Positions 52,126 through 57,621 of a stretch of 64,000 bases of DNA are shown here, one piece after another. The first letter of the stretch is position 1; each line of letters begins with the position of its first letter. Made by a program: the position numbers and the translations under genes. This DNA comes from Spirochaetae bacterium HGW-Spirochaetae-2 (GTDB taxonomy: Bacteria; Spirochaetota; Spirochaetia; Sphaerochaetales; Sphaerochaetaceae): NCBI GenBank assembly GCA_002839355.1, contig PGXW01000010.1, positions 11,057-75,056 on the forward strand, given 5' to 3'. The notes below the pieces were generated by a model, which saw nothing but the letters and a program-made list of their open reading frames with translations, was not told where the DNA came from and ran no database searches.

Positions 52126-52542
52126 ATGAAATCATATCGAAAGGAATTGCACTTCAATCTGCCTACCAGACGAGGCTTGGTGAACATAACACAACAGGTG
52201 CAGGAAGCGGTAATCGATAGCGGGGTACGGGAAGGATTGGTCCTGGTGAACGCCATGAACATCACCGCCAGTGTATTCATCAATGACGACGAACGCGGAT
52301 TGCACAACGACTACGAGAAGTGGCTCGAAGGAATTGCCCCAGAAAAGCCCTACTCCCAATACCAGCACAACGGGTACGAGGACAATGCCGATGCCCACTT
52401 GAAGCGGACCATCATGGGACGTGAGACGGTGGTCTCCATTACCGACGGACAACTGGACTTCGGTACCTGGGAGCAGATCTTCTACTTCGAGTTCGACGGC
52501 AAACGAGACAAGCGGGTGTTGATTAAGATTATTGGCGAATGA
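52126..52542 (+). CDS. yjbQ: YjbQ/UPF0047 family protein
   Basis: 138 aa ([27 protein letters not shown]...[16 protein letters not shown]). RBS AGGAGG. Start MKSYRK. Confidence 0.8.
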
Positions 52543-52586
52543 ATCATTAGTACCATTTCTGGGAATCAGCTTGAAACACTTGTGTT

Positions 52587-52610
52587 ACGTGTATCACATG
52601 TGATACACGT
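52587..52610. promoter_or_regulatory. 24-bp perfect palindrome ACGTGTATCACA|TGTGATACACGT upstream of relB (putative antitoxin operator)
   Basis: Perfect 12+12 inverted repeat 22 bp upstream of the relB ATG. Flanked by TTGAAA (52571) and TATTTT (52610). Confidence 0.55.
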
Positions 52611-52631
52611 ATTTTACAGGAGGACAATGAA

Positions 52632-52871
52632 ATGAGCGAATCTATTTCCGTGCGATTACCGAAAGAATTGGTCGATCGTCTCGATAATTTGGCGAAGCAA
52701 ACCGGAAGAACGAAAACCTACTACATTCAGGAAGCACTCTTGGAAAAAGTAAGTGATTTGGAGTTAGTATACTTGGCCCAAAAACGCGAAGAAGATCTCA
52801 GGGCTGGACGCAGCAAAACTCATACGCTTGAAGAGGTCATCGAAGCGAATGGCTTGGCAGATAAGATTTGA
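52632..52871 (+). CDS. relB: RelB/DinJ-type ribbon-helix-helix antitoxin
   Basis: 79 aa. N-terminus ISVRLPKELVDRLDNLAKQTGRTKTYYIQEAL. AGGAGG upstream. Confidence 0.75.
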   Translation: MSESISVRLPKELVDRLDNLAKQTGRTKTYYIQEALLEKVSDLELVYLAQKREEDLRAGRSKTHTLEEVIEANGLADKI

Positions 52872-53121
52872 AACCCAAGCAGTAAAGGAACTTTCGGCTT
52901 TAGACAACTCCGTGAAAATAAAAATTCTAAAATACTTGAGAAAACTCGAGGAATGTGATGATCCACGTGTCCTTGGCAAATCGTTGACTAATAACTTTTC
53001 GGGTTACTGGAGGTACAGGATTGGCAACTACAGAATCATCTCTCGGATATACGACACTGAGTTGGTTATACTGTTACTCGCCATCCGAAAGAGGGATGTT
53101 GTTTATAAGATCAAGCAATGA
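52849..53121 (+). CDS. relE: RelE/ParE-family toxin
   Basis: 90 aa, MAWQIRFETQAVKEL...RYRIGNYRIISRIYD...RKRDVVY. Overlaps relB by 23 bp. Confidence 0.75.
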   Translation: MAWQIRFETQAVKELSALDNSVKIKILKYLRKLEECDDPRVLGKSLTNNFSGYWRYRIGNYRIISRIYDTELVILLLAIRKRDVVYKIKQ

Positions 53122-53270
53122 AATTTTTTCCATGCCTCCCTTTCAGATATTATCCTGATCAACCTATCTCTTTGGGTATATGCTATTAGGGTGAGTGACC
53201 ATTGAATTGCCCCTTTTTACTCATTCCCTAATACTCGCCTACTATTCACTTAAAAGGTTATACCTTCAAT

Positions 53271-53292
53271 ATATTCATCTTTATATGAATAC
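53271..53292. promoter_or_regulatory. inverted repeat ATATTCAT-ctttat-ATGAATAc just upstream of the SatD-like gene promoter
   Basis: 7/8 matching arms, 5 bp upstream of the -35 hexamer. Confidence 0.35.
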
Positions 53293-53296
53293 TTTG

Positions 53297-53324
53297 TTGA
53301 CATCTAGGGATTTTGTATTAGAAT
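53297..53324 (+). promoter_or_regulatory. near-consensus sigma70 promoter TTGACA-16-TAGAAT
   Basis: The -10 ends 6 nt before the first in-frame ATG (53331), which suggests a leaderless or very short-leader transcript. Confidence 0.5.
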
Positions 53325-53330
53325 GTGCAT

Positions 53331-54152
53331 ATGAAACAGGGTGGAAATTATTATGTGGCGGTTATCGCCGACATCAAGGATTCCAAGAAAGCGAAAAATC
53401 GGGCGCTACTGCAACAGAAGCTCAATTCGGTGCTCAACGAAATCAATCACAAAGTTGATCTCTCGTTCGGTTCCATCGTCTCGGAAAACCCACCTCTCTA
53501 TTACAAGGAATACTTGAAACCTCTACAGGGCAGCACGCATAAGGTGAAAACAGCACCTTTCCCTGTCGACATCAATCAAAATGTGTTAGCTTCCAACTTC
53601 ATGATTACGCTGGGAGATGAATTCCAAGGGTTGTTGTCGTATTGTTCCGGACTCATGCCGATTATCGACCATATCGAGAGGAGTCTATTCCCACAAAAGA
53701 TACGCTTCGGCATAGGAATTGGGGAAATCCAAACCGAGATCAATAGGAATCTTCCATTCGGCATGGATGGGCCGGCATACCATATAGCTAGGGAAATGAT
53801 ATCACTATTGAAAGAATCTGAGCGTAAGACACTGGAACCTTCTGCAAATATACGAATTGGCATACAAGGTAACGATGGTCTTTCATTCTTGCTGAATACA
53901 ATCTTCTCATTATTGACAACAATCAAGGAAAGATGGACTGATCGACAGGTTTTGATTATGAACACGTTCATGCATGAAGGAGCCCAGACTCAGATGAAAA
54001 CAGCAGAACACTTGGGCATTTCCCAATCAAGTGTCCAGAAAGCATTGTCTGCTTCAAATTTTTATACGTACCAGTATGCCCTTACCAACGTCTCTGTCAT
54101 GCTGCAGGACATCGGGTTTACATATGCTATTGAGAAATCATCAATCATGTGA
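53331..54152 (+). CDS. SatD-like protein (nucleotidyl-cyclase-like N-terminal motifs plus C-terminal HTH-like segment); function unknown
   Basis: 273 aa. VAVIADIKDSKKAKN and TLGDEFQGLL resemble the DxDxFK...GDEF metal-binding motifs of GGDEF and class-III cyclases. The C-terminus reads TQMKTAEHLGISQSSVQKALS. Family assignment is from memory of the SatD consensus and is unverified. Confidence 0.5.
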   Translation: MKQGGNYYVAVIADIKDSKKAKNRALLQQKLNSVLNEINHKVDLSFGSIVSENPPLYYKEYLKPLQGSTHKVKTAPFPVDINQNVLASNFMITLGDEFQGLLSYCSGLMPIIDHIERSLFPQKIRFGIGIGEIQTEINRNLPFGMDGPAYHIAREMISLLKESERKTLEPSANIRIGIQGNDGLSFLLNTIFSLLTTIKERWTDRQVLIMNTFMHEGAQTQMKTAEHLGISQSSVQKALSASNFYTYQYALTNVSVMLQDIGFTYAIEKSSIM

Positions 54153-54172
54153 CTGGAAGAGAGGTTGACAAT

Positions 54173-54907
54173 ATGTTCAGATCCATATGTAGCGTTTATT
54201 TGCTGCTACATCTTATCGGGGATTATTATATGCAGTCAGATAAAAACTCCCAAAGAAAAGAGATAAAGTACTCCGTTGTGCTATCCCATAGCATTATCTA
54301 CGCCATACCGTTTTTTATATTGGTAGTATTCATCGATTGGCAAAATGAATGGTTGATGCAAGCCGGTATGCTTAGTATTTCCCACCTATGTATCGACACC
54401 ATCAAACACTTCGTAGTAAAAGAACGTAAAAATATGGGGGCGTTACCATATCTGATCGATCAAGCATTCCATATGCTGTCTCTGATGTGTATAGCACTGA
54501 TTACCATTAGGTGGATGCATGGTATTGAGGCAGCGCCTTGGGTACAAACAATCATTAATGTTTCAAACACTAAGTATATAAATATCATTGCATGGGCTTG
54601 CATGCTACTACTGGTTGGAAAACCAGCAAATATCACAATCAGACAGATATTGAGAATATATAAACCAGCCGGAGATGAAGAATCGAAGAGAAAAGTCGGT
54701 GCATTGATTGGCTCCTTGGAACGTATCATCATGATGCTTCTTCTCGGAATTGGGCAATACACGGCAATTGCCTTGGTACTCACTGCTAAATCTATAGCCC
54801 GTTATGACATGCTCAAAGACAAGCAGTTTGCGGAGTATTACCTGTTGGGGACACTCTTAAGCACCTTGATTGTGTTATCAGCCTTCCTGGTTCTCCTGTA
54901 TCCTTGA
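54173..54907 (+). CDS. DUF3307 (SatE-like) polytopic membrane protein
   Basis: About 244 aa with six to seven hydrophobic helices. N-terminal LLLHLIGDYYMQ motif. Overlaps or is coupled to the upstream gene (GAGAGG RBS). Confidence 0.5.
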   Translation: MFRSICSVYLLLHLIGDYYMQSDKNSQRKEIKYSVVLSHSIIYAIPFFILVVFIDWQNEWLMQAGMLSISHLCIDTIKHFVVKERKNMGALPYLIDQAFHMLSLMCIALITIRWMHGIEAAPWVQTIINVSNTKYINIIAWACMLLLVGKPANITIRQILRIYKPAGDEESKRKVGALIGSLERIIMMLLLGIGQYTAIALVLTAKSIARYDMLKDKQFAEYYLLGTLLSTLIVLSAFLVLLYP

Positions 54908-55029
54908 CCAACCCGATTATCCTCACCCGGATTCTAAGCAATCTTCAAGCCTGAAAGGCCCAACGGCTCAATAAATGGTAATAATACTGCAGAACAAGCT
55001 CTGGACCTTGTCTCCGCCTCGATTGGATA

Positions 55030-55239
55030 TCAGTCTTCAGATTTTTCGGAGTTCTCAATATTGCCATATGCGGGAACTGATTCTCGCAACATGTCTCGGC
55101 GAAGAACCTGATTGATCCTTGTCTGATACCCCTTCCCCTCCGTCTTATACCAATCCAGGATATCGGCATCAATATACATACACACTTTTCTTTTCACCGG
55201 TCTATAGTTCTTCGGGTTTCGAAAATGCGATGGTCGCAT
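55030..55239 (-). CDS. BrnA/DUF4415-like antitoxin-type protein, apparently orphan
   Basis: 69 aa. ...KVCMYIDADILDWYKTEGKGYQTRINQVLRRDML matches the BrnA-type C-terminus (GYQTRIN..LR). No DUF497/BrnT-like gene adjacent. Confidence 0.45.
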   Translation of the reverse strand: MRPSHFRNPKNYRPVKRKVCMYIDADILDWYKTEGKGYQTRINQVLRRDMLRESVPAYGNIENSEKSED

Positions 55240-55377
55240 TCGAGGTACCTGGTACCAACTTTCGTTTTTGAATACAAAATTATTTCAAATGTTTAAATTT
55301 CTACTTTTCAACGGTATTTACAATAACAATACTCATAAATTGTATACAAATTTAATAACCGGTACCAGGCACCAACG

Positions 55378-56043
55378 TCAGTTGTAGGTGCCGCTGAGGG
55401 TGAACGTACCGTTGGGCAGGATATATTCAAGCGCCATTGTCTCATAATTGAATACTGCCCAAGTGAAGATACCGGCGACCTTGCCACGTGCTTGCAGCTT
55501 CGCGCCGTATGTTTCCTTCGCCACCCAATTCATGTCTATCGTGGCTCCCAGAAGTGATCCGTCAAGTACACCGTTGGCAGCGAGTGTCAACACAACGTTT
55601 CCCGCTACATCCTCAACATTGATCACACTGTGGTTCGAACCCGAGATTACTCCGGTGACCGGATCGAAATTATAGTTGGTGACATTCGACATGACGACAT
55701 TCTTACCGTCCAACAGGTCCCAATCGGACTCGATGAGACCACCGTATGGACCATACTGTGCACTGTACAGTGTCTCTTCGATCGTCTTGTAGTGGTTGCT
55801 ATTGCCCATAGTCCGGGTAACGACACTTTCATAATCCTGATACAGGTTTACTGTTGCAGTGAAAGATGTTGGACCCTTTCCCTTTGCGACAGCTTCAGCC
55901 TTGGCAGCATTCGATTCCATACTTCGACCTGTCATGTTGTCCATTTGCAGACCACCGACGGCCAAGTCACAACCAAGGAACACGGTGAAGAGTGCGATCA
56001 ACAAGATTGGAACGAGCATTTTTTTGACAGATTTCATTTTCAT
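55378..56043 (-). CDS. hypothetical lipoprotein
   Basis: Signal peptide with lipobox VFLGCD. Start MKMKSVKK. Flanked by AT-rich intergenic DNA on both sides. Confidence 0.6.
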   Translation of the reverse strand: MKMKSVKKMLVPILLIALFTVFLGCDLAVGGLQMDNMTGRSMESNAAKAEAVAKGKGPTSFTATVNLYQDYESVVTRTMGNSNHYKTIEETLYSAQYGPYGGLIESDWDLLDGKNVVMSNVTNYNFDPVTGVISGSNHSVINVEDVAGNVVLTLAANGVLDGSLLGATIDMNWVAKETYGAKLQARGKVAGIFTWAVFNYETMALEYILPNGTFTLSGTYN

Positions 56044-56208
56044 AAGTATACATCCTTTCCACAACTATTTGTATTGCATTACTATATAGCACCATCACAA
56101 TATGTCAATAATTTTTTAGCTTTGTTATACCAATTATAACACCTTTAACAATAAAATACTATTTGTGCATTTAATTCTTCATCATGCCAAACACAAGGAA
56201 AATGAAGG

Positions 56209-56299
56209 GTATCTCACCCTACGTTCCCTGCTCTCGCTCGGTAATGGACCAATAGTAATTGTTCCGCTACCCTCGTTTCGTTGGGGAATGAAAGGTTCC
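56209..56299 (+). ncRNA. conserved ~91-nt intergenic element, copy 2 (candidate 5' leader or small RNA; identity unknown)
   Basis: About 94% identical to 24712-24802. Lies 150 nt upstream of the DUF2974 gene start, after an AT-rich promoter-like tract. Followed by a CTCGC/GCGAG hairpin with no T-tract. Confidence 0.4.
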
Positions 56300-56451
56300 T
56301 TCGGCACCTCACCTTGCTCGCATTCGTTCAGGCGAGTGACAATCATCATTCCCAACACCGACATCTTGACCAGACCAAATCCTGGCCATATTGTAGATAT
56401 GGCGGGGAGAACAAACAGAAAAATGGTATCCCCTGTAGGAGAAAGCGAGGT

Positions 56452-57621
56452 ATGGCCAACATCTACGACTACCTGACCTGGCGCGGCGATCTGACGTTCA
56501 ACAAGGATCCGTTGAACGAAATCGACAGCCTGGTGTTCTCCACCCTTGCCTATGGAGAATTCGAGACCATACTCGCCCCATCGATCGGGGAGCTGTCCCT
56601 TCCGCTTGCCGAAGTTGACCAAGCATATGACAATTTCATGCAAGAGAATTACAAGGAATCCGATCCGCTGGGATTCTTCGGGGAGGTGCCGAAACTCCTC
56701 CATCAAGCTGCCACCACCAAACGGTTCGCCAACGTCCACCTCAGCGGATTTGAAAAACAGATAGATTTCGACCAGTCCAAACAATTTGTCGCCATGGTGA
56801 TATCCCTTCGGAAAAATCTCCACTTCCTCGCCTTCCGTGGAACCGACACCAACCTTGCCGGTTGGAAGGAGGATTTGCAGATGAGCTTCATGGATGAAGT
56901 TCCGGCACAGCAACTGGCCGCCGACTTTGCCAACAAGGCATTCGAATCGCTAGAGGGTGAATTCTATCTTGGTGGTCATTCCAAGGGAGGCAATCTGGCT
57001 GTCTATGCGGCCGTGAAAGCATCGAAAGAACAGCAGGACCGGATTATTGCCATATACAACAACGACGGACCCGGGTTCCAGTCACACATTGTCGAAAGCG
57101 ATGCCTACCAGCGAATCCTTGGCAACATCAAGACCTTCGTTCCAAGATCGTCTCCCGTCGGCTTGCTATTGGAACATGGCGGGGATTATACCGTAGTCGC
57201 CAGCACCCAAAAGAGCATATTGCAACACGACCCCTTCTCTTGGGAGGTACTCGGACCCCGATTTGTTTCCGAAGATGGACTTTCAAAAGGGGTGTTGGCG
57301 ATCAACAATGCCATACGGACGTGGTTGGCACAAGTTTCCATGGAGGAACGGGCCGAATTCGTGAAGGGGTTTTGCGACCTTATCGAGGCAACCGGTGCAA
57401 AGACCTTGGAGGACCTCACCAATGAGAAGCTGCAATCGGCTCAGGCAATACTGAAAGCCTATACCCATATGGGCAAGGATGCACGGACAAACCTCAAGAA
57501 GACCCTGGACCTCTTTTTCAAGGAGAGTCGAAAATCGATACGGGAAACGATACTCGGCGAGATAGACCATTTGCTTCCAAAGAAGCGCTCTCCCAAATCG
57601 ATATCGTCGGAGCAGGAATAA
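56452..57621 (+). CDS. DUF2974 (Mbeg1-like) alpha/beta-hydrolase / lipase-like protein
   Basis: 389 aa. MANIYDYLTWRGDLTFNKDPLNEIDSLVFSTLAY is the typical family N-terminus. Lipase-like GGHSKGG nucleophile elbow. Confidence 0.7.
   Translation: MANIYDYLTWRGDLTFNKDPLNEIDSLVFSTLAYGEFETILAPSIGELSLPLAEVDQAYDNFMQENYKESDPLGFFGEVPKLLHQAATTKRFANVHLSGFEKQIDFDQSKQFVAMVISLRKNLHFLAFRGTDTNLAGWKEDLQMSFMDEVPAQQLAADFANKAFESLEGEFYLGGHSKGGNLAVYAAVKASKEQQDRIIAIYNNDGPGFQSHIVESDAYQRILGNIKTFVPRSSPVGLLLEHGGDYTVVASTQKSILQHDPFSWEVLGPRFVSEDGLSKGVLAINNAIRTWLAQVSMEERAEFVKGFCDLIEATGAKTLEDLTNEKLQSAQAILKAYTHMGKDARTNLKKTLDLFFKESRKSIRETILGEIDHLLPKKRSPKSISSEQE

Follow-up and report, generated by a model that had tools for sequence, protein, structure and literature searches.

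Do neighbouring genes of the SatD and DUF3307 families form a functional module, and if so of what kind? Both families are catalogued but have no known biochemistry, and they are seldom mentioned in the searchable literature; yet their members are spread over thousands of lineages, among them oral as well as pathogenic streptococci. One such pair lies in the 64,000-nucleotide stretch of a Spirochaetota genome analysed here (the window). A preliminary description, made from the letters alone, had pointed to cyclase-type motifs and a helix-turn-helix in the first protein and to a small membrane protein as the second. We suggest, with a probability of about one in two, that SatD is an autoregulating dimer gated by a nucleotide and that it controls the membrane protein SatE.

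The satD-satE locus

The open reading frame list shows two co-directional frames filling the interval downstream of a toxin-antitoxin pair, and satE starts 20 nt past the satD stop codon.

52632-52871, upstream of satD: RelB-family antitoxin (NF048017, 3.7e-25)
52828-53121, upstream of satD: RelE/ParE toxin, partner of the RelB-family antitoxin
53331-54152, forward strand: satD, 273 aa, SatD family
54173-54907, forward strand: satE, 244 aa, polytopic membrane protein

Pfam places the first protein in SatD (PF16264, 131.9 bits, E=3.2e-38; gathering threshold 29 bits), and all 62 aligned homologs match the same family. The second protein belongs to DUF3307 (PF11750, 63.9 bits, E=1.8e-17; gathering threshold 23 bits), but only residues 8-112 are covered. 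The pairing named in the preliminary description was thus correct, and the protein strings that it quoted are all present: VAVIADIKDSKKAKN at residues 9-23, TLGDEFQGLL at 93-102 and TQMKTAEHLGISQSSVQKALS at 219-239 of SatD, and HLIGDYYMQ at 13-21 of SatE.

The GC content is 0.40-0.43 over approximately 52500-55250, compared with 0.50-0.57 on either side, so the pair does sit in an AT-rich stretch after relBE. No RNA elements were found by an Rfam and tRNA scan of 48-60 kb. The closest genomic match is the Spirochaetota MAG HGW-Spirochaetae-4, with 96% protein identity. In the HGW-Spirochaetae-8 lineage a 62% identical homolog occupies the syntenic site, where the order is AraC-type sensor, glyoxalase, YjbQ, TA pair, satD, satE; there the TA pair is BrnT/BrnA and not RelB/RelE.

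Linkage and distribution of the pair

In 71 of 79 genome loci, satD is followed directly by a DUF3307 gene on its own strand; four of the remaining loci lie at contig ends. The commonest arrangement is an 8-nt overlap of the two genes. The pair is also found on a haloarchaeal plasmid and beside a TPR-fused SatD, and a tandem SatD neighbours SatE as well, in reversed gene order. Look-ups begun from SatE gave a SatD partner in three out of three cases. Apart from satD and satE themselves, clustering of the neighbours within a few kb gave no third shared gene, and ffh, ylxM and satC are absent from the window and the 79 other loci. The satD-satE pair is therefore autonomous.

A neighbourhood of defence cargo, one of the kinds that the preliminary description had named, did not emerge. 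PADLOC 2.0 gave no match for SatD or SatE at E<=1; this collection may not include Panoptes and other systems published after 2023. The 139 flanking genes came from about 75 species. Each family among them is seen five times at most, defence genes are not enriched, and the matches to defence models are generic HTH or AAA domains. A conserved third gene such as satC, or a shared defence context, was thus rejected on the neighbour clustering and the Pfam and PADLOC scans of the 139 proteins. Carriage by mobile elements was also discarded as there were no phage matches and only 8 plasmid records, all of them large plasmids or chromids. Since the flanks of the family show no shared gene and no enrichment of defence genes, the TA-rich and AT-rich setting belongs to this one locus of the lineage and is no trait of the SatDE family.

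SatD contains a cyclase-type palm

An AlphaFold model of SatD was built on the alignment of 62 homologs and has a mean pLDDT of 87.9. It divides the protein as follows.

53331-53930, forward strand: predicted SatD palm domain, aa 1-200, strand-helix-strand-strand-helix-strand-helix-strand-helix
53451-53585, forward strand: SatD aa 41-85, an insert of ~45 aa that separates helix 1 from strand 2
53931-54149, forward strand: SatD C-terminal helical domain, predicted to bind DNA, aa 201-273
53991-54053, forward strand: HTH core, SatD aa 221-241

In the N-terminal half, strand 7-15 is followed by helix 24-40 and by strands 86-92 and 97-102; helix 105-119, strand 124-132, helix 148-165, strand 174-178 and helix 182-199 complete the domain. 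The insert is confined to this spirochaete clade in the homolog alignment, splits the Pfam match into two flanking stretches, and is modelled with low confidence (pLDDT 49-81).

As modelled, the N-terminal domain has the palm fold of class III nucleotidyl cyclases and GGDEF domains, with the strand order of the class III cyclase palm. The structure matches to true cyclases are stronger than those to the PucR-type entries 3onq and 9f80. D14 ends strand 1 and G95-D96 lies in the hairpin of strands 2 and 3, positions that in cyclases and GGDEF domains hold the two metal-binding Asp. This agrees with the paired Asp motifs and the cyclase-like palm that had been suggested from the sequence.

At the sequence level no tie to cyclases was obtained, as the profile searches of Pfam and PDB gave HTH matches only. 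Guanylate_cyc (PF00211) and GGDEF (PF00990) were undetected in all 62 SatD members even at E<=10, and a profile search of PDB sequences returned no cyclase match. The link to cyclases is, on this model, structural only: SatD is outside every named cyclase family by sequence, yet it uses the same structural template. Among the papers listed in a literature search, SatD was not found mentioned together with cyclase, GGDEF or palm domain.

Conserved residues point to a site probably shared in a dimer

A word-indexed search together with a profile search of 1.84 billion representatives provided 254 full-length homologs; the profile search alone gave 3,944 SatD clusters at E<=1e-3, in both Bacteria and Archaea. 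The near-invariant residues are D14, S18, R24, G95-D96-E97-F98-Q99, R125, G129, G131, T135, D146, G147, A153 and R154. Of the 254 homologs, D14 is kept in 250, S18 in 251, R24 in 248, G95 in 252, D96 in 251, E97 in 248, Q99 in 251, R125 in 249, G129 in 254, T135 in 249, D146 in 250, G147 in 252, A153 in 252 and R154 in 250. The two Asp on which the cyclase-like reading had been staked are therefore conserved, and the same motifs occur in three further sequences from haloarchaeal and alphaproteobacterial plasmids. Judged from the alignment, the SatD palm keeps the full set of putative metal- and phosphate-binding residues.

The fourth position before R154 is Y in 221 homologs, F in 27, W in 5 and L in 1 (n=254). 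A Tyr or Phe thus appears in place of the catalytic Asn, a mapping made by eye and not from a residue-level alignment with cyclases. No Lys/Asp or Glu/Cys base-specificity pair is identifiable in SatD.

Two long proteins from the profile search, P0358 and P0382, are tandem SatD-SatD duplications. Aligned with the family profile, the N-terminal copy still has D14, S18, R24, D96, E97 and R125, but T135, D146 and R154 are gone. In the C-terminal copy the D14/S18/R24 segment is missing, H stands at D96 and V or Y at R125, and T135, G144, D146, G147, A153 and R154 are retained. Such complementary decay is a hallmark of class III cyclases that work as heterodimers, in which the metal ligands come from one subunit and the residues for the transition state and the substrate from the other. 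From this loss we infer that the two sets of SatD residues come together at the interface of a head-to-tail dimer, and that the site is probably shared between the protomers. P0358 and P0382 are related to each other, and their complementary loss may record one event. The long SatD proteins proved to be either TPR fusions or tandem SatD copies, and a fusion of SatD to SatE was thereby dismissed.

The promoter layout is of the leaderless type

The region in front of satD contains a promoter and an inverted repeat, and a ribosome-binding site can be read from the sequence in front of satE.

53272-53291, no strand assigned: inverted repeat, TATTCAT (53272-53278), N6, ATGAATA (53285-53291)
53297-53324, forward strand: sigma-70-type promoter, TTGACA (53297-53302), 16 nt, TAGAAT (53319-53324)
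54155-54164, forward strand: Shine-Dalgarno-like GGAAGAGAGG, 8 nt ahead of the satE ATG

The promoter matches the consensus at 11 of 12 positions, in line with its earlier designation as near-consensus, and is the top-scoring site within 52400-55400; the total of promoter-like sites in this region is not above chance (6 versus 8.2 expected). The -10 box TAGAAT is followed by 6 nt (GTGCAT) and then by the ATG at 53331, with no Shine-Dalgarno ahead of it. The N-termini of close homologs (MKKGYYVAVIADI, MKNNIYVAVIADI) favour this ATG. A GGTGGA-N9-GTG within the satD reading frame is a minor alternative start that is not conserved.

The spacing recurs in relatives. HGW-Spirochaetae-4 has an almost identical promoter, TAGAAT-6 nt-ATG, also without a Shine-Dalgarno, the HGW-Spirochaetae-8 lineage has the equivalent TTGACA-17-TAGCAT-6-ATG, and a weaker form of the same layout is seen in S. 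halotolerans. Most of the remaining homologs have a leader of 17-30 nt with GGAGG. As it is present in the window, HGW-4 and the HGW-8 lineage while most others have a leader, the -10/6-nt/ATG layout is a conserved trait of this spirochaete subclade. A gap of 6 nt places the usual transcription start on the A of the ATG, and the satD mRNA is thus, from its sequence, probably leaderless here, which had already been considered in the preliminary description.

A helix-turn-helix and its candidate operator

The C-terminal domain of the SatD model consists of helices 204-214, 221-228, 232-241 and 244-272. Weak but recurrent matches to this part among the 62 members include Sigma70_r4 (32/62), Cro (35/62), HTH_28 and the PucR-type HTH_30 (15/62, best E=0.0012), and NCBIfam adds weak matches to sigma-factor region 4. 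The C-terminal helix-turn-helix that had been noticed by eye is thus recovered both in profile matches and in the model.

The inverted repeat, also noted earlier, has perfect 7-nt arms and ends 5 nt ahead of the -35 box. We surveyed palindromes in the promoter regions of 80 distinct loci, with shuffled controls. Perfect 6-bp arms 9 nt apart occur in 43 of the 80 regions compared with 6.6 in the shuffles, and 9 is the peak among spacers of 3-15. The pattern NGMATA-N9-TATKCN, invariably a 21-bp unit, is present in 31 of the 80 regions (0.5 expected), and the TTGA of the -35 box often lies within its spacer.

The half-sites fall into the classes TGAATA, CGAATA, TGCATA, GCTATA, GTTATA and CTTATA. 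These classes follow those of the HTH sequence: QSNVQ(K/R)AL helices accompany GCATA sites, and Q(S/P)(S/A)VQK(S/N/G)L helices accompany GAATA sites. This covariation of HTH and operator is suggestive only, with phylogeny and the occurrence of several palindromes in one promoter as confounders. In the window, TGAATA (53286-53291), the right arm of the repeat, precedes TTGACA by 5 nt, which is where the canonical operator has its left half-site; TGAATA-N5-TTGACA is also seen in the HGW-8 relative. The window has a degenerate counterpart of the right half-site, and its visible repeat is everted (TATTCA-N8-TGAATA). We propose that the C-terminus of SatD is a sigma-70-region-4-like HTH that would bind palindromes at its own promoter; autoregulation by SatD would be the simplest reading.

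SatE and its C-terminal domain

The AF2 model of SatE has 11 helices and a pLDDT of 92.2, in line with the small polytopic membrane protein expected from its sequence; a structure search with this model gave no solved relative. The MF(K/R) N-terminus is common to the homologs. Two regions can be separated.

54194-54508, forward strand: DUF3307 domain, aa 8-112, four transmembrane helices
54575-54904, forward strand: C-terminal domain, aa ~135-244, covered by no Pfam model

Within the four N-terminal helices, H13, G16, D17, Q21, Y43, H71, K78, D96, Q97 and H100 are invariant, and at least 90% of the sequences also have H39 and D75. A simple positive-inside count predicts that all these residues, with their His/Asp cluster, are near the cytoplasmic face, which suggests, speculatively, a metal or ligand site.

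The C-terminal 130 residues are outside the PF11750 model, and the C-terminal half is the most conserved part of the protein, with the motifs KPxN, GxxIGxLER, AKSxxR and FxEYYLxGTLxS. In the deposited annotation of Sphingomonas and Agrobacterium, the gene after satD encodes this half alone. As these forms consist of the C-terminal domain only, it may be the minimal partner of SatD. Similar C-terminal-only candidates in Bacillota were set aside: there are many short proteins, and at least one of these, next to an IS256-type transposase, is a remnant.

A model and its alternatives

We suggest that satD-satE is a self-contained autoregulated two-gene operon. SatD would be a dimer in which each nucleotide site is shared by both protomers, and its HTH would sit on palindromes, typically with 6-bp arms 9 bp apart, at the operon promoter. 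Binding of an NTP at the dimer interface, probably with turnover, would set the grip on the operator and thereby the amount of SatE made. SatE would be the module's output, polytopic, with a His/Asp cluster on the cytoplasmic side and a highly conserved C-terminal domain. It would be translated from its own ribosome-binding site, and satD from a leaderless transcript start.

Turnover is not needed in the main alternative, in which SatD would be a non-catalytic sensor, a transcription factor whose cyclase-like domain only binds a nucleotide or another small ligand. Such a binding-only role has been proposed for the GGDEF-like domains of PucR and CdaR and for cyclase-like ATP-binding regulators. 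SatE would then simply be the regulated product, a transporter or membrane enzyme that serves in housekeeping or under stress, for instance in acid tolerance. We regard both the sensor and this role of SatE as possible but somewhat doubtful. Binding-only pseudo-enzymes usually shed their catalytic residues, whereas SatD holds on to both metal Asp and to E97, R125, D146 and R154, each present in about 98% or more of the 254 homologs from Bacteria and Archaea, and the complementary loss in the tandem copies is the pattern of a catalytic cyclase heterodimer. Nor does SatD belong to the PucR/CdaR group by profile, as GGDEF_2 (PF17853) was undetected in all 62 members and HTH_30 is weak.

The remaining alternatives make SatE a harmful protein. 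By a logic like that of Panoptes or of toxin-antitoxin pairs, SatD could restrain a potentially lethal SatE, through a nucleotide that it makes or through repression, and SatE would be unleashed when SatD is lost or inhibited; we find both parts of this unlikely. We give a similarly low chance to its most far-reaching form, a new and very widespread nucleotide guard in which SatD would continuously make or consume a nucleotide that keeps SatE harmless, and SatE would be set free once SatD activity is lost; here the His/Asp domain of DUF3307 might be a membrane-embedded hydrolase that turns the signal over. If true, it would explain why satD is essential where present and dispensable for the species. 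In a meta-analysis of S. pyogenes, satD was the sole accessory gene scoring essential; it is found in 178 of 249 genomes and is essential in emm1, emm28 and emm49 strains (PMC11323703). This is expected of a gene restraining a harmful partner, and satE is also recurrently inactivated. However, the loci were chosen via SatD, and the apparent asymmetry of decay is therefore biased. The Tn-seq result is from a distant streptococcal homolog, and the supplements of the essentiality study have no satD or satE rows. Moreover, a soluble nucleotide-binding domain is missing from SatE, whose conservation is far higher than that of typical pore-forming effectors, and the absence of PADLOC matches, phage copies and defence enrichment in the flanks, with few plasmid records, also speaks against a guard. 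The lack of PADLOC matches, of defence islands in the flanks and of phage copies, and the rarity on plasmids, also count against an infection-triggered defence of the Pycsar or type III CRISPR kind, in which SatD would make a cyclic nucleotide solely upon phage attack and this nucleotide would activate SatE to damage the membrane. This we consider highly improbable: such systems have no HTH with an operator, SatE has no recognisable cyclic-nucleotide-binding domain, and if satD activated a suicide effector, one would expect the reverse of its essentiality.

These results turn an annotation label into something testable, namely a predicted intact cyclase-type site, probably shared in a dimer, on a putative DNA-binding protein. 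The family operator is recognisable, and the most conserved domain of SatE, the obligate partner, was previously undescribed. If SatD makes a product, it would be a new branch of the cyclase/GGDEF/Cas10 superfamily and possibly the source of a new second messenger; if it only senses, it would be a compact model for nucleotide-controlled transcription.

Comparison with known systems

Both proteins of the window are members of the families named after the sat (secretion and acid tolerance) operon of S. mutans and have the same adjacent order. The gene order there, reportedly given by Kremer in 2001, is ylxM-ffh-satC-satD-satE, and we know of no established function for streptococcal SatD or SatE. 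The S. mutans cluster is listed as SMU.1057-1063 (PMC12077213). In contrast to it, the window has no ffh, ylxM or satC, and its SatD has the 45-aa clade insert and the leaderless layout.

With class III cyclases (PF00211), SatD shares the palm fold, the Asp of strand 1 and the G-D in the hairpin of strands 2 and 3. The cyclase motif F-x-D-I-x-G-F-T presumably corresponds to A-D-I-x-x-S in SatD, and both appear to have an R-x-G-I-x-x-G strand with A-R on the next helix, in by-eye alignments to the cyclase motifs. The complementary degeneration in tandem SatD resembles that of cyclase C1 and C2. However, the dimerisation arm appears absent from the secondary structure of the model, and the palm is fused to an HTH and not to sensor domains. 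The LGDEF of SatD resembles GGDEF and the minimal palm topology is common to both, but the active site of GGDEF proteins is inside one domain, and two domains must meet; no complementary loss would thus be expected in tandem copies. PucR proteins also have a palm-like domain followed by a C-terminal HTH, as the matches to 3onq and 9f80 reflect, but their GGDEF-like domains are not known to have the catalytic residues.

Panoptes (OptS mCpol and OptE) is likewise a two-gene operon of a small palm-domain protein and a membrane protein. It offers an earlier example of a membrane effector silenced by a palm-domain synthase (PMC12657218), and this kind of logic, in which a cyclase restrains an effector, would explain an essential yet accessory satD. 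OptS, however, has no HTH, OptE has the soluble nucleotide-binding domain that SatE is without, and Panoptes is an established antiphage system while SatDE has no defence context.

Finally, SatDE differs from TetR-TetA and type II toxin-antitoxin pairs in that the sensor domain of SatD has a cyclase fold and the genes are co-directional and overlapping, not divergent; the large, highly conserved and polytopic SatE is also unlike known toxins. As in these pairs, an upstream HTH gene has a palindromic operator over its own promoter and is tightly coupled to a partner that may be harmful when uncontrolled.

Disruption of satE beside satD

In the HGW-Spirochaetae-8 lineage, satE (loci L001-L004, e.g. 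L001:8841-9567) carries an in-frame TAA in place of the codon for the invariant Gln21, giving MYKSLFTLYLLLHLIGDFIL, then the stop, then TDK. This replacement recurs on four contigs that stem from different samples; all of them have an undamaged satD. This satE is likely a pseudogene or an N-terminally truncated form. Of the roughly 74 loci that could be evaluated among the species-representative genomes (L005-L084), some 10 have a frameshifted or truncated satE beside a full-length satD, and satE is absent at 4 further loci; this asymmetry between satE and satD damage is biased, because the loci were chosen via SatD. Isolates are found among the damaged loci, namely Thomasclavelia saccharogumia DSM 17460, Clostridiales VE202-01 and Faecalicatena contorta JCM 6483.

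The C-terminal domain of SatE also occurs alone. The gene 3' of satD encodes only this domain, without DUF3307, in Sphingomonas (L087:4549-4965, 138 aa) and on Agrobacterium pAt (L086:4702-4974, 90 aa). The alphaproteobacterial SatD proteins are annotated with the N-terminus MGD(I/L)VDS, a beginning that suggests mis-called starts. A C-terminal SatE fragment of 120 aa (P0391) is present on 18 contigs. At L096:998-2863 and in L097 its gene adjoins that of an IS256-type transposase; the insertion appears to have removed satD, along with the 5' half of its partner.

Apparent turnover of the neighboring genes

The following features surround satDE in the window:

52581-52607: palindrome with 12-bp arms, TGTGTTACGTGTATCACATGTGATACA, directly upstream of relB
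52828-53215: relE region with a deletion in HGW-Spirochaetae-4 (compared with L005:5400-6010)
55030-55239 (-): BrnA-antitoxin ORF, 68 aa (PF14384, E=8e-13)
55378-56064 (-): protein of 227 aa with a hydrophobic segment at its N-terminus
56281-57621 (+): Mbeg1-like protein (PF11187)

In HGW-Spirochaetae-4, the 96%-identical relative, a deletion of ~250 bp takes most of relE and the spacer 3' of it, leaving relB as an orphan antitoxin; relB and the satD promoter are unbroken despite this loss. The palindrome is also kept there, with changes. It was rated terminator-like by the scan, but is more likely the relBE operator than a terminator. On the other side of satDE, no BrnT toxin gene was found beside the BrnA ORF of the window, and the HGW-Spirochaetae-8 relative has a complete brnT-brnA pair between yjbQ and satD. 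The toxin-antitoxin modules around satDE appear to have been swapped at this site. The genes for the Mbeg1-like and the 227-aa protein are both downstream of satDE; the 227-aa protein, for which no family match was found, is encoded across another GC dip (55.75-56.5 kb).

Variants of SatD

In its palm, SatD itself contains a 45-aa insertion (window 53451-53585, aa 41-85) that separates helix 1 from strand 2 and is modeled as two short helices and a disordered loop. It is common only to the closest spirochaete homologs, and in Sphaerochaeta the insertion is shorter. Changes of architecture are seen as well: P0358 and P0382 (L088:977-2239) are tandem SatD-SatD proteins with complementary motif loss, while P0336, P0359 and P0367 (L090:4001-5536) are fused to long TPR arrays. 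P0348 has, in addition, a hexapeptide-repeat-like segment at its end. A DUF3307 gene still adjoins both the tandem and the TPR-fused variant.
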